Positions 8,262-32,796 of a DNA stretch of 64,000 bases are shown piece by piece. The notes below the pieces were generated by a model. That model ran no database searches. It saw only the letters and a list, made by a program, of their open reading frames with translations, and had not been told where the DNA came from. How positions within the stretch are numbered: position 1 is the stretch's first letter; each line of letters begins with the position of its first letter. Origin of the DNA: a virus; the IMG/VR virus record IMGVR_UViG_3300030061_003795. The stretch is one strand, 5' to 3'. Both the position numbers and the translations under genes were made by a program.

Positions 8262-9602
8262 ATGTTAAACATTATAGAAACTCCATCCCAACTAGAAGCA
8301 TTTAAGTTGGAGGAGGACTTTGAACAATGTTACGTTGATTTTATTCAAACAAATGAGAATAAACATCCGAGCTTAGATTCTTTAACCTCCCTCTATATAT
8401 ACAGCTTTAAACAAGAACAAGGATTCTTAATTAATTTTACACACCCAGACGCCTTAAAGTTAGACATTTTAAACTTTGACTTCTTAAACGAATACAAAGA
8501 CATACTAGTTTACGACAAAAAATATGCAATGCATATGTTTGATTATCTTCCTTACACGGATCTTCAATCAATTTACTATGCAAACACTGGAAAAACTCAC
8601 ACTCTTGATTCTAAACCTCTTATATATTCTCACTTTTATAGAAAATTTCCTTCCACACAAACAAACAAAATAATTCCGTTAGGAAAATTATATGAATGGT
8701 GCGAAATTAAGCGTATTAATGCGCTACAAATAACGGAAAAATATTCTCCATCGGATACCACAGAATGGTATAACCGCGTTTTAATTCCAACACTCTACAA
8801 CGTTGAAAAACAAGGAATTCCCACACACGAAATACAAGAAGTATTTGATATTAACTCAGAATTGTCATTAAAAAGTGGGCTTTTCTTTAGTTTATATAAC
8901 TACCAAACAACCACAGGAAGGCCATCAAATAAATTCAACAACGTTAATTTTATGGCTCTCCAAAAAGAAAGCCAACAACGAAAATGTATTGTACCTCAAA
9001 ATGACTACATATTAGAAATCGACTACGATGGTTACCATCCAAGGATAATAGGAGATATTGTAGGATTTGAATTCGATGCCGAAACTTCTGTGCATGAACA
9101 GCTAGGTAAAATGTATTTTAAAACAGAAGAACTATCTAAAGAGCAATACGCGAAGTCGAAGGAACTGACTTTTAAACAGCTGTATGGTGGGGTGTTTGAA
9201 GAATTTGCTCACCTGCCCTTCTTTGATAAAACAATAGATTTTACAGTAAGCTTATACTACAGATTTAATGAAGAAGGATATATTTCGCTACCTATTTCTA
9301 AACGTAGATTTTACAAAGACAATTACAATGAAATAGGACCACAAAAGTTATTCAATTATTTCATACAGATGAGTGAAACAGAAAGAAATATGGAAATAAT
9401 GTACAAACTAAATGAGTTTTTAGAAAATAAAAAAACCAAACTCATAATGTATATGTACGATGCTTTTATATTTGATGTAGATGAAAGGGATGGAAAAAAT
9501 ATTAAAAGTGAATTAGATTTAATAATTAGAAATAACAAATTTAGAACAAAAGCTAAACAAGGTAGTTCATTTGGGGAATTGATAGAAATAGATTTAAACT
9601 AG
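8262..9602 (+). CDS. Short, divergent family A DNA polymerase-like protein
   Basis: TTTGRPS, motif A DYDGYHPR, motif B KELTFKQLYG, FNYFIQ, motif C MYDAFIFD. Confidence 0.75.
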   Translation: MLNIIETPSQLEAFKLEEDFEQCYVDFIQTNENKHPSLDSLTSLYIYSFKQEQGFLINFTHPDALKLDILNFDFLNEYKDILVYDKKYAMHMFDYLPYTDLQSIYYANTGKTHTLDSKPLIYSHFYRKFPSTQTNKIIPLGKLYEWCEIKRINALQITEKYSPSDTTEWYNRVLIPTLYNVEKQGIPTHEIQEVFDINSELSLKSGLFFSLYNYQTTTGRPSNKFNNVNFMALQKESQQRKCIVPQNDYILEIDYDGYHPRIIGDIVGFEFDAETSVHEQLGKMYFKTEELSKEQYAKSKELTFKQLYGGVFEEFAHLPFFDKTIDFTVSLYYRFNEEGYISLPISKRRFYKDNYNEIGPQKLFNYFIQMSETERNMEIMYKLNEFLENKKTKLIMYMYDAFIFDVDERDGKNIKSELDLIIRNNKFRTKAKQGSSFGELIEIDLN

Positions 9603-17659: not shown

Positions 17660-18111
17660 TGGGGTCAAAAAAAGTACCAAAAAAACCTAAACCTAAACGC
17701 TCTGCTATGAGATTTTATTGGTGGAGACGATTTGGAACCCACAAAAGACTCCCACAAAAAACCTCTCTATTAGATAAAATAAGAAATGGGGATTTTTTAT
17801 CATCTCCCTATTGGGATCAAGCTAGATGGGAGGAAACATATTCTTCTCAACACATTAAAGAAGTTAAAAAAGAAAGACCCTTAATAAGTCAAGAAGAAAT
17901 ATTAGATATAGAAAGAACCTACATTAAACGAAAAAATAGACTCTTAGAAGATGCTTTTAACGACGACACTAGACGCTTAAAACACTTAGAAGAATGTTTT
18001 GTTAAAGAATTAGGGGGTAGCAAAAAGCTTCTGTACAAATGTATAGAAAATTGTGAAGGAGATGAAGAAGTCCTTTACCACGAATATCGAGAACAAGTTA
18101 AAAGTTTATGA
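17659..18111 (+). CDS. Hypothetical protein
   Basis: 150-aa ORF (FYWWRR..LLDKIRNGDF); ATGA overlap with next gene. Confidence 0.6.
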   Translation: MGSKKVPKKPKPKRSAMRFYWWRRFGTHKRLPQKTSLLDKIRNGDFLSSPYWDQARWEETYSSQHIKEVKKERPLISQEEILDIERTYIKRKNRLLEDAFNDDTRRLKHLEECFVKELGGSKKLLYKCIENCEGDEEVLYHEYREQVKSL

Positions 18112-18905
18112 AAATATCACACGAAGTACCTATTCCTTATTTAAATCAGAGTAGAGCATTTAATCAATATGACTACTGTCTCCCTCACTTACTAGATGAA
18201 AGTGAAGAATATAAGAACTATTTCCAAAAATCTAAGGAAATGGGACGCTATATTATTATGGATAATTCCCTACATGAATTAGGTAAACCTTATGATTCTG
18301 ATAGATTATGGTATTGGATGAATTATTTTAAACCCGATGAATTTATAGTGCCTGATTATTGGCAAGATAAAACAAAAACATTAGTTACAGCTAAAGAATG
18401 GATTAACAAAGAATATCCAGAAGAAACAACCCCCGTAGCTGTAGTCCAAGCTGATTGTAAAAGTGATGCTTTTGAATGTTATCACATTTTAAAAATGCAG
18501 GGTTATAATAAAATAGCTTTTAGCTACGGTGCTGATTGGTATTACAAAGAAGGATTAAAATCAACCCCCGATAGTAATAATAATTTTATAACTAAAGCTC
18601 ATGGGAGATATAACACAATAAAAGAATTTTATGGAAAAAAACTAATATCTAAATATGACAAAGTTCATTTATTAGGATGTAATGTACCACAAGAATTTAG
18701 TTGGTATGAGGACATGCCTTTTATAGAGTCACTAGATACCTCCAACCCGGTAATTCACGGCCTCGCAGGAGTAAAATATGAGGATTTTGGATTAGAAGAA
18801 AAGCTACCGTACAAGGTAGATAAATATGAAGGAAACGAGGAGAATTGGGATACAGTATTGTATAACATCTCTAAATTTAAAGAATTCCTTCCAAACATTA
18901 AATGA
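18108..18905 (+). CDS. TGT/DpdA-like TIM-barrel transglycosylase (deazaguanine pathway)
   Basis: IIMDNS, IVPD, PVAVVQ, VHLLG, SLDTS match TGT-family strand motifs; adjacent to que genes. Confidence 0.65.
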   Translation: MKISHEVPIPYLNQSRAFNQYDYCLPHLLDESEEYKNYFQKSKEMGRYIIMDNSLHELGKPYDSDRLWYWMNYFKPDEFIVPDYWQDKTKTLVTAKEWINKEYPEETTPVAVVQADCKSDAFECYHILKMQGYNKIAFSYGADWYYKEGLKSTPDSNNNFITKAHGRYNTIKEFYGKKLISKYDKVHLLGCNVPQEFSWYEDMPFIESLDTSNPVIHGLAGVKYEDFGLEEKLPYKVDKYEGNEENWDTVLYNISKFKEFLPNIK

Positions 18906-19402
18906 TGGTAACAACAATTTCAGTAACAATTACTCTTATCTCAATTTCATATTCAATATGGATTTATTTAAGTAACAGAGATTTTAATAAATCAGCAGAA
19001 ATTAAAGCAAATGCTTTATTAGAACGATGGAAAGTAAAAGAAGAAAAAAGAATCAGAGATGACGCCTATAAAAGGAGTAGAGCAGTAGGTTTTGGAAAAA
19101 CAATAGAACATTTCGTTCCATTTATGGAAGGCTTTCCAGTAAAAGCAAAAGATGTTCAATTTTATGGTAATCCGGTAGATTATATTGGAATTAAAAATAG
19201 AAATAGCAAAACAAAATGTGAAGTTCATTTTATAGAAGTTAAAAGTGGAAGTAGTAACTTAAACCAACATCAAAGAAATATAAAGAAAGCAGTTGATGAA
19301 GGAAGAGTATACTTCGACATAGTAGAAGTAGATGGTTTAACAGAATCAGAAAAAACACTAACAATAACAAATAAACAAACTAAGGATGCAGACCGTAAAT
19401 AA
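18902..19402 (+). CDS. Membrane-anchored PD-(D/E)XK endonuclease (Endonuc_Holl-like)
   Basis: N-terminal TM; RSRAV..GK..EH..PF, FYGNPVDYI, FIEVKSG..LN..QR. Confidence 0.8.
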   Translation: MMVTTISVTITLISISYSIWIYLSNRDFNKSAEIKANALLERWKVKEEKRIRDDAYKRSRAVGFGKTIEHFVPFMEGFPVKAKDVQFYGNPVDYIGIKNRNSKTKCEVHFIEVKSGSSNLNQHQRNIKKAVDEGRVYFDIVEVDGLTESEKTLTITNKQTKDADRK

Positions 19403-19658: not shown

Positions 19659-20552
19659 ATGAAACAAAAACAAGCAGTACTTAGTCTCTCAGGAGGGATG
19701 GACTCCTCAACCGTATTACTTCATTTACTAGCTCATGACTATAAGGTAACGTGTTTATCTTTTGACTATGGACAAAAACATAGTGTAGAACTTGAAAGGG
19801 CACAAGAATTAGTAAATTATTTAAATTCTAAAGCAGACGAAACTTTAGCTAAAAATGATTTAGGGGAAACCATAATGCACCATTTTGAAAAAATAACTTA
19901 CCAAACTATAAAATTAGATGGTTTATCTACCTTACTAAATTCAGCCTTAGTAAAAGGTGGGGATGAAGTGCCGGAAGGTCATTATGAAAATGGCAATATG
20001 AAAGCAACAGTAGTTCCTAACAGAAATAAAATATTTTCATCAATTATCCAAGCAGTAGCATTATCGATTGCAACTGAAACTGGAGATGAAGTTAAAATAG
20101 CAATGGGAATCCATGCAGGTGATCATGAAATTTATCCTGATTGTAGACAAGAATTTAGAGATGCCGACTACAAAGCATTTTTAGAAGGTAATTGGGAAGG
20201 ACATAAAGTGAAGACCTATACACCATATTTAGATGGAGATAAATTTGATATTTTAAAAGATGGAGAACAGTGTTGTAAATTGTTAGAAGTGGATTTTGAT
20301 GAAGTTTATAAAAGAACTAATACATCTTACAAACCAATCAAACATTATTACAGACCTGAAACAAACGCTTTTAAATGGTACTCAGATTACAAATCAGCTT
20401 CGTCAGTTGAAAGGGTAGAAGCATTCCTTAAGTTAGGAAGACCTGATCCTGTAGAATACGCAGATGAAAAAGGACCAGTAAAATGGGAAGTAGCAAAACA
20501 ACACGTAGAGCAACAATTATATGATTGGGCTGTAGATAAAGGAAGAGATTAA
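19659..20552 (+). CDS. queC: 7-cyano-7-deazaguanine synthase
   Basis: SGGMDS, FDYGQKH, TVVPNRN, YPDCR; canonical C-terminal Zn cysteines replaced (SASSVER). Confidence 0.92.
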   Translation: MKQKQAVLSLSGGMDSSTVLLHLLAHDYKVTCLSFDYGQKHSVELERAQELVNYLNSKADETLAKNDLGETIMHHFEKITYQTIKLDGLSTLLNSALVKGGDEVPEGHYENGNMKATVVPNRNKIFSSIIQAVALSIATETGDEVKIAMGIHAGDHEIYPDCRQEFRDADYKAFLEGNWEGHKVKTYTPYLDGDKFDILKDGEQCCKLLEVDFDEVYKRTNTSYKPIKHYYRPETNAFKWYSDYKSASSVERVEAFLKLGRPDPVEYADEKGPVKWEVAKQHVEQQLYDWAVDKGRD

Positions 20553-20553
20553 T

Positions 20554-20784
20554 ATGAGCGATAGAGAAATAATGGATTCTAAATTTAAAGGAGAGAATCA
20601 AATACATAAATTTATAAAACAAAACCAAGAACACATGCCAGATCAGAAATGGCATAAAATTGTTAGTTTTATTAAATCTGGAATTAGAATAGTAGGTTAT
20701 TGTTTTATTCCCTTTAATTTGGGAATAGCAACTTCTCTTCTTATATCTAGTGAAATAGTAGGAATCGTAGAAGAATTAGTATAA
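20554..20784 (+). CDS. Small hydrophobic hypothetical protein
   Basis: 76 aa, hydrophobic C-terminal half, between queC and queD. Confidence 0.55.
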   Translation: MSDREIMDSKFKGENQIHKFIKQNQEHMPDQKWHKIVSFIKSGIRIVGYCFIPFNLGIATSLLISSEIVGIVEELV

Positions 20785-21248
20785 TGGGAAAGTTTCAATC
20801 AAGTAAAGTTTTTGACGGATTTAGTACAGTGTTTCGTCAATGGAAAGCTAAAAACACACACTGTAGATTTTTACATGGTTATGGTATTTCATTTAAAGTA
20901 TATTTTGAAGGTGATTTAGATGAACGTAACTGGGTATGGGACTTTGGAGGTATGAAACGAGCTAAAACTCTTATAGATGGTAAACAACCCAAAGCATGGA
21001 TGGATTATATGTTTGATCATACTGTAATAGTAGCTAAAGATGATCCAGGGATGGATGGTTGGGAAACTATGAATGAATTAGGAATAATTCAATTAAGAAT
21101 TATTGAAGCTACAGGTGCTGAAAAGTTCTCCGAGTATATTTATAATAAGCTAAATAAATTTGTTAAAACTGAAACAGACAATAGAGTTAGAGTAACAAAA
21201 GTTAAATTTATGGAGCATGGAAAAAATGCTGCATATTATAGTGAATAA
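20784..21248 (+). CDS. queD: 6-carboxytetrahydropterin synthase
   Basis: HCRFLHGY, WVWDFG, FDH, GAEKF. Confidence 0.88.
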   Translation: MGKFQSSKVFDGFSTVFRQWKAKNTHCRFLHGYGISFKVYFEGDLDERNWVWDFGGMKRAKTLIDGKQPKAWMDYMFDHTVIVAKDDPGMDGWETMNELGIIQLRIIEATGAEKFSEYIYNKLNKFVKTETDNRVRVTKVKFMEHGKNAAYYSE

Positions 21249-21272: not shown

Positions 21273-22046
21273 ATGTTAAAAAGAATAAAGGATTACAACA
21301 AAGTACTCCCCGTATTAGAAGTATATAGGTGTGTACAATCAGAAGGGTCAAGATTTGGAAGACCCACAATAGCAGTTAGAACAACCGGGTGTACACACAG
21401 ATGCTACTTTGGAGAAGGTGGTTGGTGTGATTCTTGGTATACAAGCATTCATCCTGAAAGAGGAACATTTACATTTAATGATATTATAAAAATATATGAC
21501 GATAACCCTCAAGTAGAAGAAATGATGCTGACAGGGGGATCACCAACTATGCACCCCGCATTAGTAAACGAATTAACACATTTTGCAAATGAAAGAGATA
21601 TTATCATTACGATTGAAACCGAAGGAAGTCATTTCCTTGATACTGACTATCCTATATCTCTCATTTCTCTTAGTCCTAAGTTTAGCAATTCTATACCCGT
21701 ACTCGGTGCTATTACACCTCAAGGAAAAGTTACAGACGAAAGAATGATTAAACAACATAGTAAATTTAGACTTAACTATGAGAAAATAAGACAAACCCTA
21801 GATTACCATACAGATTATCATTACAAACCAGTTTGGGATGGGACTGATAAAAACTTAAAGGAAATTGAGGAATTTAGGGTTAAAATGAAAATCCCAAAAA
21901 ACAAAACATATATAATGCCTGCTGGAGATACTAGAAAAACCCTAGTTGAAATGTATCCTTTAGTATTTGAAATGTGTGCTGAGGAGGGATATAACATGAC
22001 AGGAAGAGATCACATAATTGCTTTTGATACTGAAAGAGGTGTGTGA
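21273..22046 (+). CDS. queE: 7-carboxy-7-deazaguanine synthase (radical SAM)
   Basis: VQSEG...G.P...VR..GCTHRC...WCDS, TGGSP, IETEG, SLSPK. Confidence 0.9.
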   Translation: MLKRIKDYNKVLPVLEVYRCVQSEGSRFGRPTIAVRTTGCTHRCYFGEGGWCDSWYTSIHPERGTFTFNDIIKIYDDNPQVEEMMLTGGSPTMHPALVNELTHFANERDIIITIETEGSHFLDTDYPISLISLSPKFSNSIPVLGAITPQGKVTDERMIKQHSKFRLNYEKIRQTLDYHTDYHYKPVWDGTDKNLKEIEEFRVKMKIPKNKTYIMPAGDTRKTLVEMYPLVFEMCAEEGYNMTGRDHIIAFDTERGV

Positions 22047-22195: not shown

Positions 22196-23224
22196 ATGGA
22201 AGAAACTAAAAAGTTTACTAAAAAATATGAGTGGGTTGGAGACGTAGATTCCTACACAGAACCAACCCCTAACGAACATTCGGAGAAATACAATGAACCT
22301 GATCGAGATTATGATAATGAATATAAACCAACTAAAGATGACATTAAAACATTCCCAGATTTGCAAAATGGTCCATCTTCTCTAATTCAAGGTTCCCCAG
22401 TAGAAATTCAACAAGTGGGTATTCATAATTTTAGATTACCCCTAAAATATAAGACTAGAGATAATGGTGTTATAGAATTAGAAACTAAAGTAACGGGTAC
22501 TGTATCACTTGAAGCACATAAAAAAGGAATAAATATGTCTCGTATTATGAGATCATTTTATGAATTTAAAAATGATACTTTTAGTATTGATAAATTAGAA
22601 ACAGTTTTATCTGCTTATCAAGACAAATTAAAATCATTTGATTCTAAAATAGCACTTAAGTTTTCATATCCAATTATCCAACCATCACTAAGATCAGGCT
22701 TAGAAGGATATCAATATTACGATGTTACGTTAGAAGGTGATTTAAATAAACAAGGCGAATTAAAGAAAATTCTCCATTTTGATTTTGTATATTCATCAGC
22801 ATGTCCTTGTTCTTATGAATTAGCTGAATTTGCTAGAAAATATAGAAACAAAGCTACTGTATCACATTCACAAAGATCAGTTACTAGAATATCTATTGAA
22901 TTTGATGATATGGTTTGGATAGAAGATTTAAAGGAAATGTGTGATAAAGCTTTACACACTGAAACACAAGTAATTGTTAAACGTGAAGATGAAATGGCAT
23001 TTGCAGAATTAAACGGATCATATTTAAAATTTGTTGAGGATGCAGCTAGATTATTATACGAGCAATTAGTTGAAGATAAAAGAATTAAGGATTTTAGAGT
23101 AATATGTTCTCATCAAGAATCATTACATTCTCATGATGCAGTTTCAGTTATATTAGCTCCTAACAGTAATTTTAGTGGAGATATTCCACATGAATTATGG
23201 TCAAGTTTAATTCACATTTCATAG
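22196..23224 (+). CDS. folE2: GTP cyclohydrolase IB
   Basis: IQQVGI, KGINMSR, SACPCS, HSQRS, VKREDE, FVEDAAR, ESLHSHDA. Confidence 0.93.
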   Translation: MEETKKFTKKYEWVGDVDSYTEPTPNEHSEKYNEPDRDYDNEYKPTKDDIKTFPDLQNGPSSLIQGSPVEIQQVGIHNFRLPLKYKTRDNGVIELETKVTGTVSLEAHKKGINMSRIMRSFYEFKNDTFSIDKLETVLSAYQDKLKSFDSKIALKFSYPIIQPSLRSGLEGYQYYDVTLEGDLNKQGELKKILHFDFVYSSACPCSYELAEFARKYRNKATVSHSQRSVTRISIEFDDMVWIEDLKEMCDKALHTETQVIVKREDEMAFAELNGSYLKFVEDAARLLYEQLVEDKRIKDFRVICSHQESLHSHDAVSVILAPNSNFSGDIPHELWSSLIHIS

Positions 23225-23543: not shown

Positions 23544-23747
23544 ATGGCTTATTGGCAAGTAAAAGTAAAAGTACAAACAGAAGGTGACAACGGAAAAGTT
23601 AGAAATCACCAAGAATTGTTTTTAGCAAACGCTGAATCAGCGACAGAAGCAGAAACATTAGCACACAAAGAATTTGAAGGAGAATCTTTCTACGATTTTG
23701 AAGTAGTAGATTGTAAAAAAACTAAGGTAATTAAGATATTATCATGA
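23544..23747 (+). CDS. DUF4494-like protein (Bacteroidota family)
   Basis: W.VKVK....NGKV....E.FL..AES.TEAE pattern. Confidence 0.7.
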   Translation: MAYWQVKVKVQTEGDNGKVRNHQELFLANAESATEAETLAHKEFEGESFYDFEVVDCKKTKVIKILS

Positions 23748-24196
23748 TAGCGATTTATGCACACAAGGCAGACCCTCGGGCTGTTGTGCCCGAAGTAGCT
23801 TATGGGGGTACTAGTGCTTGTTTTGATATTACGTGTATTGAAACAACCACTATTCCTGCTAAAGGAAGCGCTGTAGTTCCAAATGGTTTAAATCTTACAA
23901 TCCCTCAAGGAGAAAATTATTGGATGCAGATCCAATTAAGATCCTCTAAAGGTTTTAAATACAGTTTAATCCCTCATTATGGTTGCGTAGATGCAGGTTA
24001 TACAGGAGATTTAGGTGTAAAAATTTACAACGTTGGAGATGAAGATGTTGTAATTGAAGGAGGAGAAAGATACGCTCAAATAGCAGTAATTCCAAAGCCC
24101 GATTACACTTTAGTAGAGTTAAACAGCGAGGAATATCAAAAATTAAAAGAAGACCAATCTCGAGGAGATGGTGGATTTGGAAGTTCAGGAAAGTAA
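23744..24196 (+). CDS. dut: Trimeric dUTPase
   Basis: RSS, G.VDAGYTG, ERYAQ, RGDGGFGSSG. Confidence 0.93.
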   Translation: MIAIYAHKADPRAVVPEVAYGGTSACFDITCIETTTIPAKGSAVVPNGLNLTIPQGENYWMQIQLRSSKGFKYSLIPHYGCVDAGYTGDLGVKIYNVGDEDVVIEGGERYAQIAVIPKPDYTLVELNSEEYQKLKEDQSRGDGGFGSSGK

Positions 24197-24199
24197 TTT

Positions 24200-26866
24200 A
24201 TGTATAAAAATGTTTTTGTAGAAAGAGGTGAAGAATGGAATGTCTGGGATGTACATTTATGGGACGATGATGGTTATAAAGTAGAGCAATTTCAAAACTT
24301 TGCTTTTGTAGAGTGTAGTGAAAATCAAGCTACACATAGAGGAATCAACAACGAACCTGTAAAGAAAATTCACAGATGGGGAAGGGATACTCCCAACATC
24401 CATTATGGAGATCATACTAGAGGAAACATACATATTAAATACTTAGTTGACAAGTATGGAAATGACGATACTCCGTCAACTACCCACAATGAAATGTTTT
24501 TTGATATTGAAATTGAGATGGGGGGCGCCTTAACTCCAGAATATATTAAGAGCGCCCCTAAACCTATAACCTCAATTGCTTGGTGGGATAAGAGATGTGA
24601 TGAATGGAAAATTATCATTGTAGATAAAAAGAACCAACTCGAAAATTACACAGACGAACAAGGTAGAGAAGTTATCCCAACTAACAGCGAACAAGACTTA
24701 ATTTCAGTTTTCTTAGATCACTATGAAAGAATAGCCCCTGACATTTTAGTAGGATATAATAGTGATTATTTTGACATCCCTTATCTATTTTACAGAATAA
24801 GGAGAGTAATGGGAGAAAGATATTCTAACAGATTATCACCTATTAGAACAGTAAGAGAACAAACATGGAGTGAAGACCAACCAATTAAAATAGCAGGTGT
24901 TTCTTCATTAGATTACTTTAGATTACATAAAAAATACCACCACAGAGATGAACCTTCCATGAAGTTGGATTATTTGGGAGAAAAGTATGTAGACCAAAAG
25001 AAAATAGAGTATGAAGGAACTTTAGATACCCTTTTTAGAGACGATATAAATAAATTTATAGAATATAACTTTGTAGATGTTTTGATTTTAAAGAAATTAG
25101 ATGAAAAACTACAATACATTGATTTAACTAAAAATATAGCTCATAAGGGAAAAGTTCAATACGATGAAGTATATGTTAGTACAAGGGTACACGATGGTGC
25201 TATATCTGCCCACCTTTTAGAGCAAGGAATAGCCCCACCTAACAAAGATCCTGAAAACGAAGACTCAGGATATTCTGGAGGATATCTATTCTGTCCTCAA
25301 ACGGGAGTATTTGAATTTATGTTTGATGAAGATTTAACTTCCCTATATCCTTGTATTGCAATGTCCTTAAATATTGGACGAGATTCTTTAATTTTTAGAA
25401 TATTAACTTCTGATAGTAGAGACAATAGGTTAGGTTTAAATGATTTAAAGGAAATGGATCCTGACAAATCAATTGAAATTGAAACTTACGAAAGGAAAAG
25501 AGGTACTACAACTATTGGAAAAATATTAAAAGCAATAGAAGCCAACAACTATGCTATTTCAGCAAATGGAGTTGTTTTTAGAACAGACACCCCCTCAACA
25601 TTAACTGAAGTATTAGATAGGTGGTTTGGGGAAAGAGTTTATTGTAAAGGGGAAATGAAGAAGGCTTATAAAATAGACAACGATCCTATAAAGGGAGCGG
25701 AATGGCACTTAAAACAATATACTCTAAAAATTCTTATTAACTCTTTATGTATGGCTACTGCTAGACCTGAATTTAGATATGGGAATGTTAGGGTAGCAGA
25801 AGCTATTACTTTGACTGGTCAGAGAATTATTCAAGATAGTGGAACCTTTATAAATAAAAAGGCTGCTGAACTTCTAAAACCAGAAAAACCAATATACGAA
25901 ATAAGAACATATCCTACTCAAAAACTACAAGATTGTTTTAATATTGTAATGTATGAGGACACAGATTCATGTTATGTTCATGCTAAACCAATTTTAGATA
26001 AACTTTACCCAAATTTTGATACTCTCGACGAAAAGGACAAAACAAACAAACTGGAAAAAGTAGCCCTTGAATATCAAGAAGCCATTACAGAGTATTACGA
26101 TGAATTTGCTAAAGATGTTTTAAATTTAAATAGTCACAGACTTGAAATGAAGACGGAGTGTGTTATTCGATCTGCTTTCTTCTCAGGTAAACGTCGATAT
26201 GCTCAACACATTACTAAAAAGGAAGGAATAGAAGTTGACGAAGTTGACATTAAAGGGTTGGATTTTATGAAATCTAATTTCCCACCAGTATTTGGTAAGT
26301 TTTTCAACGAAATACTACTTGAAACCCTACACGGAGCTAAAAAAGAACAAATTAACAAGAAAGTATTAGCTTTTAGAGAAGGCATGGACACAATGCCACT
26401 AAGTGATTTAGCTAAACCAACATCCGTTAAAAAGGTTAAAAGACACATAATCAAAAAAGAACCAGGACAAATATTTTCAGGAATTCAAAAGGCAGTCTTT
26501 ACTAAAAAAGTTAAAGGAGGACCTGATAAAGAAACACAAGCAGGAGCTCCAGCACCAGTTAAGGGAGCTATTTTTTACAATGATTTACTTGATTTTAAGA
26601 AACTTGGAGGTAAACACACTCAAATAGTAGAAGGTGATAAAGTTAAATGGGTTTATTTAAAACAAAACCCTTACAAAATAGAAACTTTATCATTTTTAGA
26701 CTATGATTTACCCGAAGAAATTGAAGAATTTCTATTAAAATATGTGGATAGGCCAAGAGCTTTTGATACGATATTAAAGAACAAGTTAGAGTCGTTTTAT
26801 GAAGACCTAAATTGGGGGGGCTTGAACTTAAATCCAACTGTAGAACAATTTTTTAAATTTATATGA
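24200..26866 (+). CDS. Family B replicative DNA polymerase
   Basis: Exo I DIE, Exo II YNSDYFD, Exo III YNFVD; pol motifs DLTSLYP, KILINSL(CM), YEDTDS, KRRY. Confidence 0.93.
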   Translation: MYKNVFVERGEEWNVWDVHLWDDDGYKVEQFQNFAFVECSENQATHRGINNEPVKKIHRWGRDTPNIHYGDHTRGNIHIKYLVDKYGNDDTPSTTHNEMFFDIEIEMGGALTPEYIKSAPKPITSIAWWDKRCDEWKIIIVDKKNQLENYTDEQGREVIPTNSEQDLISVFLDHYERIAPDILVGYNSDYFDIPYLFYRIRRVMGERYSNRLSPIRTVREQTWSEDQPIKIAGVSSLDYFRLHKKYHHRDEPSMKLDYLGEKYVDQKKIEYEGTLDTLFRDDINKFIEYNFVDVLILKKLDEKLQYIDLTKNIAHKGKVQYDEVYVSTRVHDGAISAHLLEQGIAPPNKDPENEDSGYSGGYLFCPQTGVFEFMFDEDLTSLYPCIAMSLNIGRDSLIFRILTSDSRDNRLGLNDLKEMDPDKSIEIETYERKRGTTTIGKILKAIEANNYAISANGVVFRTDTPSTLTEVLDRWFGERVYCKGEMKKAYKIDNDPIKGAEWHLKQYTLKILINSLCMATARPEFRYGNVRVAEAITLTGQRIIQDSGTFINKKAAELLKPEKPIYEIRTYPTQKLQDCFNIVMYEDTDSCYVHAKPILDKLYPNFDTLDEKDKTNKLEKVALEYQEAITEYYDEFAKDVLNLNSHRLEMKTECVIRSAFFSGKRRYAQHITKKEGIEVDEVDIKGLDFMKSNFPPVFGKFFNEILLETLHGAKKEQINKKVLAFREGMDTMPLSDLAKPTSVKKVKRHIIKKEPGQIFSGIQKAVFTKKVKGGPDKETQAGAPAPVKGAIFYNDLLDFKKLGGKHTQIVEGDKVKWVYLKQNPYKIETLSFLDYDLPEEIEEFLLKYVDRPRAFDTILKNKLESFYEDLNWGGLNLNPTVEQFFKFI

Positions 26867-27618
26867 TATCAAGAAGTTTATTATCTAACACCATTTCAAA
26901 GTACCACTTAAATGGTTTAGTTGAAAAAGTTATATGGAAAGTAAAGGATAACCTCCTACACATTGCTTTTAGAAACGAAGCAGGAAATATAACAGGAGAA
27001 GTCAAAGTTCCATGTAAAATGATAAATGGGGATTTTAATATCTATGATACTTCTCGACTTAACAAGCTTTTAAACATATTAGAAAGCACAATATTAGTGG
27101 ATGTTGTAAATAATGCAAGTAATGTTCCTACGGTTTTTAAAATAGCAGATTCCAAAATGGATGTACATTATAACTTAGCATCCCCTGGATTGTTAGTTGG
27201 ATTTTGGTTTGACAGCTCAGCAGTAGAAAACCAAATACCCCAATATGATGTTACAGCTGATTTAAACGAAGAAGATTTAAGATTATTTCTAAAGTCTGTA
27301 GGGGCTTTAGGAAATGAGGTTTTAGATTTTCAAATATCAACTAGAGAAGAGCTCAATGGAGAAGAAATTGTATTTTCTTTAGGAACTGATTTCACAAATA
27401 GAGTTAATTTTGGAGTTTCTTGTAATGTTGTAAACCCAGTAACAGACACTTTAACATTTGAAATTGAATCATTTAAAGAAGTATTTCAAGCGAATAAATC
27501 ATTAAAATCAGGAAAATTAAGCTTCTCAAATAAAGGAATTATAAAATTAGAATTCACAGAAGAAGTAGGAGAAGATGAAGAAATAAAAATAGTATATTAT
27601 ATAGCGAAAAAACAATAA
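26863..27618 (+). CDS. Sliding clamp (gp45-like)
   Basis: 251 aa, follows polB; F.IYDTS.L.KLL pattern and terminal YYI strand. Confidence 0.7.
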   Translation: MISRSLLSNTISKYHLNGLVEKVIWKVKDNLLHIAFRNEAGNITGEVKVPCKMINGDFNIYDTSRLNKLLNILESTILVDVVNNASNVPTVFKIADSKMDVHYNLASPGLLVGFWFDSSAVENQIPQYDVTADLNEEDLRLFLKSVGALGNEVLDFQISTREELNGEEIVFSLGTDFTNRVNFGVSCNVVNPVTDTLTFEIESFKEVFQANKSLKSGKLSFSNKGIIKLEFTEEVGEDEEIKIVYYIAKKQ

Positions 27619-28005: not shown

Positions 28006-28323
28006 ATGAAAGAATCACCAATCAACCCTTTAGGAGACCGTGTTGTAATACAGGTTATAGAGGAAACAGAGCAAATGTATGGGAATATTATTATTCCTGA
28101 TATGGGAAGTGAAAAACCTGTAATGGGAGAAGTATTAGCTGTAGGGCCTGGAAGATTTTCCCCTGAAGGAAAGGTAGTAAAGCCCGAAAAACAATTAACA
28201 GTAGGAATTAAAGTTTTGGTTCCTTCATTTGGAGCGCAGAAAGTATCACTAAATAACGAAGAATATATAATTGCAAGTGCAAACGATATTTTAGGAATTA
28301 TAAAATCAGAAGAAAATGAGTAA
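28006..28323 (+). CDS. groES: Co-chaperonin GroES
   Basis: PLGDRVVI, GNIIIPD, GEVLAVGPG, DILG. Confidence 0.93.
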   Translation: MKESPINPLGDRVVIQVIEETEQMYGNIIIPDMGSEKPVMGEVLAVGPGRFSPEGKVVKPEKQLTVGIKVLVPSFGAQKVSLNNEEYIIASANDILGIIKSEENE

Positions 28324-29965
28324 ACAAATAGAATTTGGAAGCGAAGCAAGAGCTAAACTTGTAGCAGGAATAGATAAATTAGCTGACGCAGTAGTAGCTA
28401 CAATGGGACCTAGTGGTCGAAATGTAGTATTTGGAGATCCTATGAAGGGAATTAGAAGTACTAAAGATGGTGTTTCAGTAGCAAAGGAAATTAAGCTAGA
28501 AGATGCTGTTGAAGATTTGGGAGCTCAAATGGTAAAACAAGCAGCCATTAAAACTGCAGACATTGCAGGAGACGGAACAACTACTTCAACTCTAATTGCA
28601 AGAGAATTAATTAAAGAAGGCGTTAAAGGACTTGACAAAGGTAGAAACTCAGTTCAAATTAAAAGAGGAATTGACAAAGCTGTAAGTGAAGTAATTGAAA
28701 ACGTTAAAAACAATATATCTGAAAAAATAACCTCAGAAGATCAATTAAAACAAATTGCATCTATATCAGCAAACAATGATATTGAAATAGGAAACCTAAT
28801 TGCCGCTGCTTTTGACAAAGTAGGTAAAGAAGGTGTAGTATCTATTGAGGAAAGTAAAACACACGAAACAACATTAGAGGTTGTCGAGGGCTTACAGTTT
28901 GATAGAGGTTACAAATCCCCCTACTTTGTAACTGACAATAATTCAATGCAAGCAAATCTCGACAACCCAGATATTCTTTTATACGATGGGAGAATTACCA
29001 ATGTTAAAGACATGGTAAAAATATTAGAAGGTTGTAGTACACAAAACAAATCACTAGTAGTAATTGCAGAAGATATCGACAGTGAAGCGTTGGCAGTTAT
29101 GATTGTAAATAAAATGAGAGGTACTTTAAAATGTTGTGCTATAAAAGCACCCGATTTTGGAGATAGAAGAACCCACATTTTAGAAGACATAGCTGTACTT
29201 ACTGGAGCGACTGTAATTTCACCACAAAAAGGACATAGATTAGATAAAGCTACTCACGAAATGTTAGGTAAAGCTAGAGGTGTAACAGTTACCAAAGACA
29301 AAACAACCATTGTAGATGGAGAAGGTTCAGAAGAATCTATCAACGCAAGATTAGATGAAATAAAAAGTCAAATCGAACGATCAGAAACACCATTTGCAAC
29401 TGAAAAACTCCAAGAAAGATTAGGAAAAATGGCAGGGGGAGTAGCTGTAATTAATGTAGGTGGACACACTGAAACAGAGATGAGAGAGAAAAAAGACAGA
29501 GTAGAAGATGCTATGCATGCTACAAGAGCAGCCATAGATGAAGGAATTGTTCCAGGTGGAGGTATTGCCTTACTATATGGTAGAACATCCATCAACTACA
29601 ATGGAGAAGGTGAAGATTTTAATTTTGGTAAAGAAATTGTTTACAAAGCACTATCAAAACCATTCACACAAATCTTAACCAATTCAGGAGTAGAATCCAG
29701 TGAAGCTAATTTTTTAGGATATAATTTAAAAAATAACACTAAAGGAGATGTTTGGGTAGGATATAATGTTGAAACCCAAGAAGAAATCAACATGAAAGAA
29801 AAAGGAGTTATAGATCCGTTTAAAGTAACTAGAATTGCTTTAGAAAACGCAGCAAGTGTAGCAGGAACAATTTTATTAACTGAAGCAGCTATAATTGACA
29901 CTCCAAAAGAAAAAGACAGCAATGAAGAAATGGCTGCACAAATGTCACAAATGGGAATGATGTAA
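28316..29965 (+). CDS. groEL: Chaperonin GroEL
   Basis: [48 protein letters not shown]. Confidence 0.96.
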
Positions 29966-29967
29966 GA

Positions 29968-30870
29968 ATGGAATTATTCGTTGAAAAATATAGACCCCAA
30001 GCTTTAGATGCATTTGTAGGAAATGAATCTTTAAAAGATACAATAGGTAAATACTTAGAAGAGGGAAATATCCAAAACCTGCTGTTTTTTGGTTCAGCAG
30101 GATGTGGGAAAACCTCTTTAGCTAAATTGATTACAAGTCAATTGAAAGCAGATGTATTATACCTAAACTCCAGCGATGAGAGAGGCATAGATGCAATCCG
30201 TGAAAAGATTGTACCCTTTGCCTCTTCAATGGGGCTAGGAGGAACTAAAATTGTAATTTTAGATGAAGCAGATTATCTAACACCACAGGCTCAAGCTTCC
30301 TTAAGAAATACTATAGAAGCTTTTCACCAGAACTGTAGATTTATTTTAACGTGTAATTATATTAACAGAATAATAGACCCTTTACAATCTAGATGTAAAA
30401 TGTTTAATGTTATTCCACCTTCTAAATCAGAAGTAGCCCACCACCTTAAAGGTATTCTCAATGCAGAAGAAATAAAACATAATATAAATGACCTAGCCAA
30501 AGTAGTAAAGCAATACTACCCCGACCTCCGTAAAATGTTAAATTCCCTCCAAGGAAATATCCATAAGGGGGAATTAAACATTGAGGGGGATAAGGAAAAT
30601 TCAGATAAGATAAAAGAACTAGTAGATATTTTAATAAGTGGAGGAAATCCAACACAATTAAGAACTGCATTAGTTACTTTAGGAGCAAAGGAATTCGATT
30701 CAGTATTCAGATCTATTTATGATAAAATAGATGAGTTTAAAAATCCTGCCGAAGCTATTCTTATAATTAGTAAATACCAATATGAATATGGTTTTGCTTT
30801 AGATAAAGAAATTTGTATAATGGCTATGTTAATACAATTAAAAGAAACAACTAAAAAACAATTAATATGA
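29968..30870 (+). CDS. Clamp loader AAA+ subunit (gp44/RFC-small-like)
   Basis: VEKYRP, GSAGCGKT, NSSDERG, LDEAD, QSRC. Confidence 0.92.
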   Translation: MELFVEKYRPQALDAFVGNESLKDTIGKYLEEGNIQNLLFFGSAGCGKTSLAKLITSQLKADVLYLNSSDERGIDAIREKIVPFASSMGLGGTKIVILDEADYLTPQAQASLRNTIEAFHQNCRFILTCNYINRIIDPLQSRCKMFNVIPPSKSEVAHHLKGILNAEEIKHNINDLAKVVKQYYPDLRKMLNSLQGNIHKGELNIEGDKENSDKIKELVDILISGGNPTQLRTALVTLGAKEFDSVFRSIYDKIDEFKNPAEAILIISKYQYEYGFALDKEICIMAMLIQLKETTKKQLI

Positions 30871-31091: not shown

Positions 31092-31496
31092 TTGAATCCG
31101 TTTGACCATATTAAAAATCTCCACACTAAGAAGTGTAAGTGGGAAGATCTAAACGATGAAGATAAAAAATCATTTAATGTTTACATCGTTAATAAAGGAC
31201 TCTCTATGAATCCTAATTATTTAGACATTGTAAATACAGTCCAAATATACATGGATAGTCCAGAAATTATTTATAAATTTTACTACTATAGTTTACCTTC
31301 AAAATTTAAATTTTATAAATGGATAAAGGGTAAAAAGGATCAAAGTAAAGATTTACTACAAAAACTTGCAGAATATTATAAAATTTCTCAAAGAGAAGCG
31401 CAAGATTATTTGGAGGTTTTAGATAAGGATTGTATATTGGACATATTATCCGAATTTGGATTAAATAAAAAAGAAACTAAAAAATTAATGAAATGA
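31092..31496 (+). CDS. Clamp loader small subunit (gp62-like), TTG start
   Basis: NPFD..K, FN.YIVN..LS, F.KW.K, YYKISQREA.DY. Confidence 0.75.
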   Translation: MNPFDHIKNLHTKKCKWEDLNDEDKKSFNVYIVNKGLSMNPNYLDIVNTVQIYMDSPEIIYKFYYYSLPSKFKFYKWIKGKKDQSKDLLQKLAEYYKISQREAQDYLEVLDKDCILDILSEFGLNKKETKKLMK

Positions 31497-31864
31497 GCGA
31501 AAATCCTTTAGGAATATCAAAAGAAGACCAAGAAATAGTAAATAGTATTGAAAAACAATACCCTGACCTTACTAAAGAATATAAAAGAATTATGTTAGAG
31601 CAATATATTTTGTTTTGTAAAAAACATTCAAACTATGGTTGTCAAAACATAACTTTAGGAACCAACCTTGAAACAGAAGAGGACATTCAGTTATCTTTAA
31701 CAGGGTTAACAATTAGACTTTTAGATAAAATAAATAGACTAAAGACTATGGTTTTAAAAGGAAAAAAAGACACTGTTGGAGAGTCCATCAAAGATACATT
31801 TCAAGATATGTCAGTATATGGAATTATCGCTCAAATCGTTCAAGAAGGAAAATTTAAAAGATGA
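31493..31864 (+). CDS. DUF1599 / nucleotide-modification-associated domain 1 (Nmad1)-like
   Basis: KKHSNYG...IRLLDKINRL...ESIKDTFQDMSVYGII. Confidence 0.8.
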   Translation: MSENPLGISKEDQEIVNSIEKQYPDLTKEYKRIMLEQYILFCKKHSNYGCQNITLGTNLETEEDIQLSLTGLTIRLLDKINRLKTMVLKGKKDTVGESIKDTFQDMSVYGIIAQIVQEGKFKR

Positions 31865-32796
31865 ATATAGTAGAACAAGTAAAATCCGTAGATGCCCCCC
31901 AAGTAGATTATTCTCAATATAAAGTTGTAAGTTACTCCCAATATCAAAATTGGGCTCAATGTCCTCACAAATGGAGACTACAGTACATAGACAAACACAA
32001 AACCCCACAAAACATACATTTTACGTTTGGGACTTCTTTACACGAAGCCATTCAAGAGTATCTCGAAAGAATGTACAACAAACCTGAACTTTTAGAGGGA
32101 TTTGATATGCAAGCATTTTTCTTAAAAACCTTCACTGAACTTTATCAAGAAAAGGTTAAATTAGAAGAAAAACACCATTCAACTCCGGAGGAACTCAAAG
32201 AATTTGCAAACGATGGTTTAAATATAATTGATTTTTTTCTAGACTATAAAGACAAATACTATCAACCCCACTATAAATTACTGGGCATAGAAATGCCTTT
32301 ACTTCACATCCCTCATCCTAAATTTCCAGAGGTAAGATTTTTCGGGAAGTTGGATGTTGTTTTATATGACCCCGAATCTGAAGTAGTAATAATAGACGAT
32401 ATAAAGACATCTACGATGGGTTGGAACAAATATCAAAAAGCAGACAAAATTAAAACAGCACAACTACCCTTATACAAAAGATATTTTCAAGAGGTATATG
32501 GTATCCCTGTAAAACACATAGATGTAAGATATACAATCGTTAAAAGAAAAGTCAACGAAAACGCTGAATATCCCGCGATGAGATCCAGAATCCAAGCATT
32601 TTCACCAGCTTCTGGAACACCTACGCTATCTAAGTTGGAATTTCATCTAAAGGAATTCATAGAGGATTGCTTTGTGGAAGGCACCGATATTTATCAACAG
32701 AAGGAATACATTAAAAACGCTAGTACTAAAAATTGTAAATGGTGTACTTTTAAGGACAAACCTGACCTTTGTGATAGAAATAAAAAGAAGAAATGA
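31861..32796 (+). CDS. Cas4/RecB-like PD-(D/E)XK exonuclease
   Basis: SYSQ...CP, FGTSLH, GKLD, DIKT, QLPLY, C-terminal CxxC-x8-C. Confidence 0.85.
   Translation: MNIVEQVKSVDAPQVDYSQYKVVSYSQYQNWAQCPHKWRLQYIDKHKTPQNIHFTFGTSLHEAIQEYLERMYNKPELLEGFDMQAFFLKTFTELYQEKVKLEEKHHSTPEELKEFANDGLNIIDFFLDYKDKYYQPHYKLLGIEMPLLHIPHPKFPEVRFFGKLDVVLYDPESEVVIIDDIKTSTMGWNKYQKADKIKTAQLPLYKRYFQEVYGIPVKHIDVRYTIVKRKVNENAEYPAMRSRIQAFSPASGTPTLSKLEFHLKEFIEDCFVEGTDIYQQKEYIKNASTKNCKWCTFKDKPDLCDRNKKKK

Follow-up and report, generated by a model that had tools for sequence, protein, structure and literature searches.

To our knowledge, the Tyr-Gly pair of motif B is treated as invariant in the family B DNA polymerases (PolB), and it plays a central part in models of the geometry check that replicases apply to base pairs. 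The window described here, a stretch of 64,000 nucleotides (nt) corresponding to IMG/VR virus record IMGVR_UViG_3300030061_003795, encodes a PolB of the T4/RB69 gp43 type (24200-26866, plus strand) in which the pair is Cys-Met (hereafter CM, as opposed to the usual YG). The role of the pair has been described for RB69 gp43. Y567 sits in the middle of the base-pair pocket's back wall, with Y416 on one side and G568 on the other. The Y567A variant is left with a hole into which neighboring residues collapse, and its error rate is raised (PMC5009745). The hydroxyl of Y567 touches the minor groove via a water molecule (PMC3564110, PMC3799440), and the Y567/G568 surface was modeled to clash with the O8 of 8-oxoguanine (8-oxoG) in its syn conformation (PMC1976434). 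In the phi29 polymerase, base discrimination is lost in the Y390S variant (PMC1976434). The initial annotation of the window had named the pocket role of Y567/G568 and the mutator effect of Y567 substitutions as established.

The same Tyr that is missing in the CM clade has been removed in the laboratory, namely in RB69 Y567A, in the RB69 L415A/L561A/S565G/Y567A variant and in phi29 Y390S and Y390F. Variants losing the ring or its hydroxyl show a lower base discrimination and an altered handling of 8-oxoG (PMC5009745, PMC3799440, PMC1976434). These are engineered Ala/Ser changes in which Gly568 is kept, whereas CM is natural and fixed, combines the loss of the Tyr with a Gly-to-Met replacement and further core substitutions, and is held under purifying selection. 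A parallel for the first residue is found in herpes simplex virus 1 (HSV-1). The UL30 variant Y818C (region III, motif B; motif numbering in PMC3564110) carries the same Tyr-to-Cys change at the homologous position, is a viable viral replicase and is listed among the variants resistant to acyclovir (PMC4032358). However, Y818C is a single drug-selected substitution in an animal virus and the Gly is kept, while CM is the natural state of a whole lineage. Natural variation at a critical motif B residue is also seen in the family A polymerases of marine phages, where residue 762 (Phe, Tyr or Leu) defines clades of the virioplankton (PMC6302109). That is a different polymerase family, in which the variation is common over many clades, whereas CM is confined to one small clade.

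The window polymerase shares with RB69/T4 gp43 the domain order, the motifs Exo I-III, the steric-gate Tyr of motif A, the Arg and Lys of fingers helix N, the Lys, Asn and Ser of motif B, the DTDS of motif C and the KKRY motif. As in T4 and RB69, its gene lies beside those of a clamp loader, a single-stranded DNA-binding protein, a UvsX-like recombinase and a helicase. The two proteins are only ~27% identical, however, and the window polymerase has Cys-Met in place of Y567-G568, Cys in place of S418 and Ala in place of I420. Residue numbering was fixed by aligning the window polymerase to RB69 gp43 (sequence from the phage record). The comparison was extended to CM relatives, namely L083 (98% protein identity; cluster P0002, with 49 member sequences), L002 (92%) and L082, which encodes P0003 (73%), and to P0004, the YG sister enzyme (69% identical to the window polymerase, encoded on a contig of 3.9 kb). 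The features of the gene are as follows.

24200-26866, plus strand: family B (T4/RB69 gp43-type) DNA polymerase gene, 888 amino acids (aa), identified by open reading frame (ORF) and translation, Pfam, the RB69 match and the ratio of nonsynonymous to synonymous substitution rates (dN/dS).
24503-25078, plus strand: motifs of the 3'-5' exonuclease, each of them intact, namely Exo I D102/E104 (24503-24511), Exo II D192 (24773-24775) and Exo III Y289/D293 (25064-25078), aligned to RB69 D114/E116, D222 and Y323/D327.
25211-25213, plus strand: H338, specific to the CM clade, replacing a Tyr conserved in 59 of 61 relatives.
25331-25360, plus strand: motif A, DLTSLYPCIA, with the catalytic D378, L382 and the steric-gate Y383 kept; an invariant Ser (RB69 S418) has become C385, and an Ile (I420) has become A387; P0003 has A385 and A387, the sister P0004 Ser and Ile.
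25382-25384, plus strand: D395, in place of a Glu (RB69 E428) found in every one of the 70 non-CM sequences aligned.
25634-25648, plus strand: fingers helix N, R479-V-Y-C482-K483, in which R479 and K483, the ligands of the triphosphate, are retained and a Tyr present in 61 of 61 relatives has become C482.
25724-25756, plus strand: motif B, L509-K-I-L-I-N-S-L-C517-M518-A, from alignment and codons, with K510, N514 and S515 kept; L509 replaces a conserved Met. KILINSLCM itself occupies nt 25727-25753, where C517 (TGT, 25748-25750) corresponds to RB69 Y567 and M518 (ATG, 25751-25753) to G568.
25952-25969, plus strand: motif C, YEDTDS, from the alignment, with the catalytic D587 and D589; Glu stands at the RB69 G620 position throughout the clade.

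The protein matches PF00136 (DNA_pol_B, 8e-21) and PF03104 (DNA_pol_B_exo1, 4e-16), and RB69 gp43 structure chains match it across residues 134-757 (E=6e-48). The similarity covers both the exonuclease and the polymerase domains, as is asked of a family B member. Y358, D378, L382 and Y383 correspond to RB69 Y391, D411, L415 and Y416. In the fingers and motif B, R479, K483, K510, N514 and S515 correspond to R482, K486, K560, N564 and S565. D587, T588 and D589 of motif C correspond to D621-D623, and the KKRY motif is present as KRRY (664-667). The family signature of motif A (DxxSLYPS) is found with its catalytic Asp and steric gate, its last Ser being Cys (Ala in P0003). The signature of motif B (KxxxNSxYG) retains its Lys, Asn and Ser and lacks the final Tyr-Gly. 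This departure does not exclude the protein from family B, since the other sequence motifs and the gene neighborhood of the family are found. The initial annotation had read motifs A and B as SLYPC-I-A and K-I-L-I-N-S-L-C-M and had described the catalytic Asps and the three exonuclease motifs as intact; translation and alignment place motif B exactly there and bear out the other readings as well. Its reading of motif C as YEDTDS is likewise correct, but the Glu is not an anomaly of this active site. Of the 85 relatives in which motif C is present, 83 read YEDTDS, and the residue varies among more distant ones.

The window also carries gp44-like, gp62-like, gp32-like, RecA/UvsX-like, DnaB-like and flap endonuclease (FEN) genes. 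It is fairly likely that the protein acts as the replicase of its phage, a member of an uncultured marine lineage with a T4-like replication module. The nearest polymerase of an isolate is that of Microcystis phage Mel-JY01 (32.5% identical).

The CM change is real, conserved and under strong purifying selection. Contigs of four other sequencing studies in Logan span 25748-25753 and carry TGT ATG without variation, although these contigs show up to six strain differences in the 300 nt compared; being contigs and not raw reads, they show that TGT ATG is present, and rare YG variants could go unseen in them. The stretch was found in 20 marine runs from 14 studies. The two codons are also found in the independent assemblies of L083, L002 and L082, and the codons around motif B differ synonymously between the CM lineages. 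The dN/dS is 0.06 when the window is compared with L083 or L002, and ~0.15 when it is compared with P0003. The initial annotation had proposed an artefact or an assembly error as one way of explaining the motif, and a TATGG that lies out of frame within the six bases could indeed hint at a local indel error. A sequencing or assembly artefact would nevertheless have to recur in four other studies and in lineages whose proteins are just 73% identical, amid many synonymous differences nearby, and a decaying gene would not be expected to keep an open frame of 888 codons with a dN/dS of 0.06. The proposal of an error is thereby refuted, and artefact or decay can be regarded as extremely improbable.

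The pair is also rare. Among 121 close homologues, 118 carry NSLYGA, and NSLCMA occurs only in the window, P0002 and P0003. When the motif B segment was used as seed for a word-based search of 5.8 billion proteins, no further CM proteins were found beyond the clusters P0002 and P0003. A more diverse set was drawn from clusters at 50% identity, whose 150 representatives share 30-73% identity with the query. Here YG is found in 129, and in P0154 within a divergent motif, while the others include Phe-Gly (5), Ser-Gly (1), an apparent intein inside motif B (5) and proteins without the motif B region (8). No replacement of the Gly outside the CM clade was seen among the ~135 informative members of this set. 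In an alignment of 70 non-CM sequences, distant ones and RB69 included, 80 columns are invariant, and the CM clade departs from them at four (RB69 S418, E428, Y567 and G568). By these counts, the CM pair is far beyond what chance would give. No description of CM was found in the literature on natural PolB motif B variants. Judged on these comparisons, the CM polymerase is a genuine, rare and conserved natural variant of the T4-type family B replicase.

Several other natural variants of motif B were encountered in this set. Five distant phage polymerases (P0194, P0205, P0208, P0273 and P0290) contain Phe instead of Tyr, and P0285 (831 aa) contains Ser (KILLNAASG, next to a motif A reading SLYPHVIM). 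Like the CM clade, these enzymes show that the Tyr of motif B can be replaced in phages of this group. Unlike the CM clade, they always keep the Gly, and none has Cys or Met. In P0206, P0212, P0216, P0282 and P0283 (752-1282 aa), a Cys-initiated insert follows straight after the motif B Asn (KI.LN|CF..), and these inserts look like inteins within motif B.

The maximum-likelihood tree unites the five CM rows in a single group (support of 93 in the Shimodaira-Hasegawa-like approximate likelihood ratio test, SH-aLRT), to which the YG enzyme P0004 is sister (support 99). On this tree, CM is of single origin. The codons indicate how the pair may have arisen. The sister and the other YG relatives read CTT TAT GGT GCT or GCA, while every CM sequence reads TGT ATG GCT. 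The CM codons contain the TATGG block 2 nt further to the right, with TG gained in front of it and TG lost behind it. Such a register shift predicts exactly what is found: a Met (which has one codon only), the retained Ala, and a Cys made from TG and the following T. In the common ancestor of the small subclade, TATGG would have slipped by two positions, turning TAT GGT GCT into TGT ATG GCT. One slip would yield Cys-Met at once, with the reading frame and the following Ala preserved. From the codons, the 2-nt shift appears a more economical origin than four point changes in six bases, which would pass through intermediates in an invariant motif. The compensated +2/-2 frameshift that the initial annotation had put forward is thus supported as a fixed ancestral event, and discarded as an error.

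The pair does not stand alone. When polarized with 61 YG relatives, 16 derived states are common to the window and P0003, with P0004 ancestral, and 13 of the 16 fall in residues 300-590, the palm/fingers core (expected: 33%; binomial p=1e-4). They include Y338H, I387A (RB69 I420), E395D (E428), Y517C and G518M. Position 385 (RB69 S418) has changed differently in the two lineages, to Cys in the window and to Ala in P0003. Y482C lies at the RB69 H485 position, flanked by both helix N residues that bind the triphosphate, and M509L at the RB69 R559 position, directly before the motif B Lys. As a result of these substitutions, two Tyr rings and an Ile disappear from the active-site core, and a Met is added. 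The co-substitutions are, on this polarization, clustered in the polymerase core.

Overall, a compensated remodeling of the base-pair pocket, in which the back wall was rebuilt via a register shift and then adjusted by core substitutions, seems rather more probable than the other explanations taken together. The order of events was probably shift first and compensatory substitutions afterwards. After the slip, the lineage would survive and then fix further active-site substitutions, with Ser replaced by Cys or Ala and Ile by Ala in motif A, Tyr by Cys in helix N, and Met by Leu before the motif B Lys. The flexible side chain of Met518 would partly occupy the space of the lost Tyr ring, and the motif A and helix N changes would repack the core around it. 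The Tyr hydroxyl is lost together with its water-mediated reading of the minor groove, and that check would be weakened. With the hydroxyl gone, the enzyme is probably less stringent in choosing the base to be inserted and depends to a greater extent on the exonuclease, which is intact. An altered base selection is thus predicted as a probable property of the CM enzyme. Going further, the clade may hold a natural second solution for the PolB back wall, reached by the one-step shift, stabilized by compensation and selected for a different substrate or fidelity profile, be it a relaxed minor-groove check, a better copying of a fully deazaguanine-substituted template or the acceptance of unusual nucleotides. 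This extension is tentative.

Several points weigh against the remodeling sequence just described. Four point substitutions could produce the same six bases, and the shift is not proven. P0003 and P0004 share 14 derived states for which the window is ancestral, mostly outside the core. The tree signal is partly mosaic, and recombination may have shaped which segments are shared. The filling of the Tyr space by Met is a deduction, as the AlphaFold2 model of the protein is too poor to define pocket geometry. Built on an alignment of 32 sequences, this low-confidence model reaches a mean predicted local distance difference test score (pLDDT) of 63.6 and a predicted template modeling score (pTM) of 0.46, with a pLDDT of 51-59 around motif B. 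Finally, the other CM genomes are known over at most ~13 kb of context, and a CM-specific partner gene could lie elsewhere.

The replicase could also be a selected mutator, in which low fidelity is kept because a higher mutation rate is advantageous, for instance for the escape from host defences. RB69 Y567A and phi29 Y390S do cut base discrimination by orders of magnitude (PMC5009745, PMC1976434), and expanded-pocket RB69 mutants are efficient and less selective, to go by the title of Zhang et al. 2009. The PolB branch from the shared node is also longer in the window lineage (0.46 substitutions per site) than in the sister (0.20); at the depth of the YG sister, dS is saturated. The exonuclease is fully intact, however, and purifying selection on PolB is strong (dN/dS 0.06). 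The GroEL and GroES proteins, which are 84-86% identical between two CM lineages, have not obviously evolved faster than in YG lineages. Moreover, the accompanying substitutions, including the Met at the 568 position, look compensatory. We regard a selected mutator as improbable.

The lineage also carries a gene cluster for 7-deazaguanine, and the initial annotation had considered an adaptation of the polymerase to a modified template or nucleotide. The cluster lies 1-6 kb upstream of PolB and was assigned by Pfam and by homology to DpdA3.

18108-18905, plus strand: DpdA3-like transglycosylase.
18902-19402, plus strand: Holliday-junction resolvase.
19659-20552, plus strand: QueC.
20784-21248, plus strand: QueD.
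21273-22046, plus strand: QueE.
22196-23224, plus strand: FolE2.

The 265-aa DpdA3-like protein matches the DpdA of Flavobacterium phage immuto_2-6A (36% identity, 3e-42) and its homologue in Campylobacter phage CP220 (5e-38). The DpdA3 gene and those of the preQ0 pathway (FolE, QueD, QueE and QueC) are complete in the window, and modification of the DNA itself is predicted from these genes. Phages with DpdA3 can replace all G, and in CP220 the G is completely replaced by 2'-deoxy-7-amido-7-deazaguanosine (dADG) through DpdA3 (PMC10516641). A CM pocket adapted to such DNA, whether to a 7-deazaguanine template, a modified dNTP or another lineage-specific base, would agree with the position of the Y567/G568 surface, which faces the templating purine (PMC1976434). 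The loss of two aromatic rings and an Ile from the CM core likewise suggests a roomier site. In addition, the window lineage is without the phosphoribosyltransferase and the MazG-like gene that accompany the YG clusters, and its nucleotide chemistry may differ.

The distribution of the genes speaks against this adaptation. The co-occurrence of CM with the que and dpdA genes, which the initial annotation had proposed as a check, was examined and CM is not specifically associated with them. At least 12 relatives with a YG polymerase (L004, L005, L007, L009-L011, L014-L017, L169, L170 and L171, the last three with an unsplit PolB) have the same DpdA3/QueC/QueD/QueE/FolE cluster upstream of it, with the gene order unchanged. 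The polymerase of CP220, despite the full replacement of G, reads KILINSLYG in motif B. All known deazaguanine insertion is described as post-replicative (PMC10516641). The geometry fits poorly as well, as a substituent at position 7 is located in the major groove and Y567/G568 line the minor-groove side. P0003, with CM, keeps the MazG-like gene and P0004, with YG, has a dUTPase, so that neither enzyme tracks CM. The absence of the phosphoribosyltransferase and the MazG-like gene cannot be linked to CM, because P0003 keeps the latter. The CM change is independent of the deazaguanine genes, and the altered polymerase should not be counted among the components of that pathway in the phage. The adaptation to a modified template or nucleotide is not supported, and a pocket shaped by modified DNA of any kind is unlikely, though a little less so than the mutator.

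A final alternative is that PolB has been sidelined as a specialized or accessory enzyme, with the genome replicated by the product of a PolA-like gene (8262-9602, 446 aa). A second polymerase-like gene does exist; its match to a PHROG DNA polymerase is weak (E=2.6e-5), and it has no match in Pfam. Its counterparts in YG relatives are 35-40% identical. It did not arrive with CM, because it is present in the YG relatives G001 (E=1.6e-67) and G002 (3.7e-106). PolB itself keeps every catalytic residue, still lies beside the clamp-like gene and the clamp loader, and evolves at a dN/dS of 0.06. A sidelined PolB is thus very improbable. As the small PolA-like gene also occurs in YG genomes, it was likewise rejected as a CM-specific backup replicase.

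A natural, widespread and strongly conserved CM replicase provides a ready test of how far the geometry check by the Tyr-Gly pair is dispensable or replaceable. The clade also supplies candidate compensatory residues and a possible scaffold for polymerases that accept modified nucleotides. Its apparent origin would illustrate how a single 2-nt displacement can recode two adjacent invariant residues, and thereby accomplish an "impossible" double replacement.

The genes around PolB were also examined for partners of the CM enzyme. Those directly upstream were assigned by Pfam and PHROG, and those of the downstream replisome module, which is syntenic in all relatives, by Pfam.

23544-23747, plus strand: DUF4494-like small gene.
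23744-24196, plus strand: dUTPase.
26863-27618, plus strand: clamp-like orf251.
28006-28323, plus strand: GroES.
28316-29965, plus strand: GroEL.
29968-30870, plus strand: gp44-like clamp loader.
31092-31496, plus strand: gp62-like clamp loader.
31493-31864, plus strand: DUF1599 protein.
31861-32796, plus strand: PD-(D/E)XK nuclease.

The dUTPase and the MazG-like gene were both rejected as CM partners: the former is found in the window, in L002 and with the YG enzyme P0004, the latter with the CM enzyme P0003 and in most YG relatives. The product of orf251 (251 aa) is without a Pfam or PHROG match and is probably the sliding clamp, judged from its position. It is 35-39% identical to its counterparts in YG relatives, as compared with 62-66% for PolB and GroEL. 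This divergent clamp was considered as a co-evolving partner and rejected, as the P0004 fragment is already of the CM type. On that comparison, the divergence of orf251 predates the CM change.

Over the N-terminal part and the core of PolB, the window falls together with P0003. The thumb (26240-26866, residues ~680-888) behaves differently: the window and P0003 are 45-61% identical here, whereas P0003 and P0004 are 72-76% identical. This suggests recombination or accelerated change in the thumb.

In many YG relatives, PolB is split into two translationally coupled genes (L004:10001-12639, L005:6544-9452, L007:8772-11676, L014:7075-9677 and L017:10001-13022). The first half (~571 aa) contains the exonuclease and motifs A and B, and the second (~308 aa) starts ~20 residues before motif C. 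In some of these loci, an ORF of 86-87 aa lies between the halves. A ribosomal protein S21-like gene follows the clamp loader in YG relatives (L169:16933-17127, L170:16873-17061 and L171:17402-17590), and the window contains no homologue of it.

The deazaguanine neighborhood varies within the clade as well. In YG relatives, a phosphoribosyltransferase gene lies between QueE and FolE (L169:7923-8432, L171:7528-8037), and PolB is immediately preceded by the gene of a MazG-like (PRA-PH) pyrophosphatase (L169:9456-10001, L171:9276-9824). No homologue of either was found within the 64-kb window, where the dUTPase takes the position of MazG. The GTP cyclohydrolase is of the FolE2 type in the window (PF02649, 22196-23224) and in L171, and of the type I FolE in L002 (1391-2089) and L169 (8432-9127). 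Going by these assignments, the two types are exchanged within the clade. In the cultured DpdA3 phage, the syntenic place that PolB takes in this clade, with the que cluster and DUF4494 on one side and GroES/GroEL on the other, is occupied by a family A polymerase. This looks like a non-orthologous replicase swap in a conserved neighborhood.

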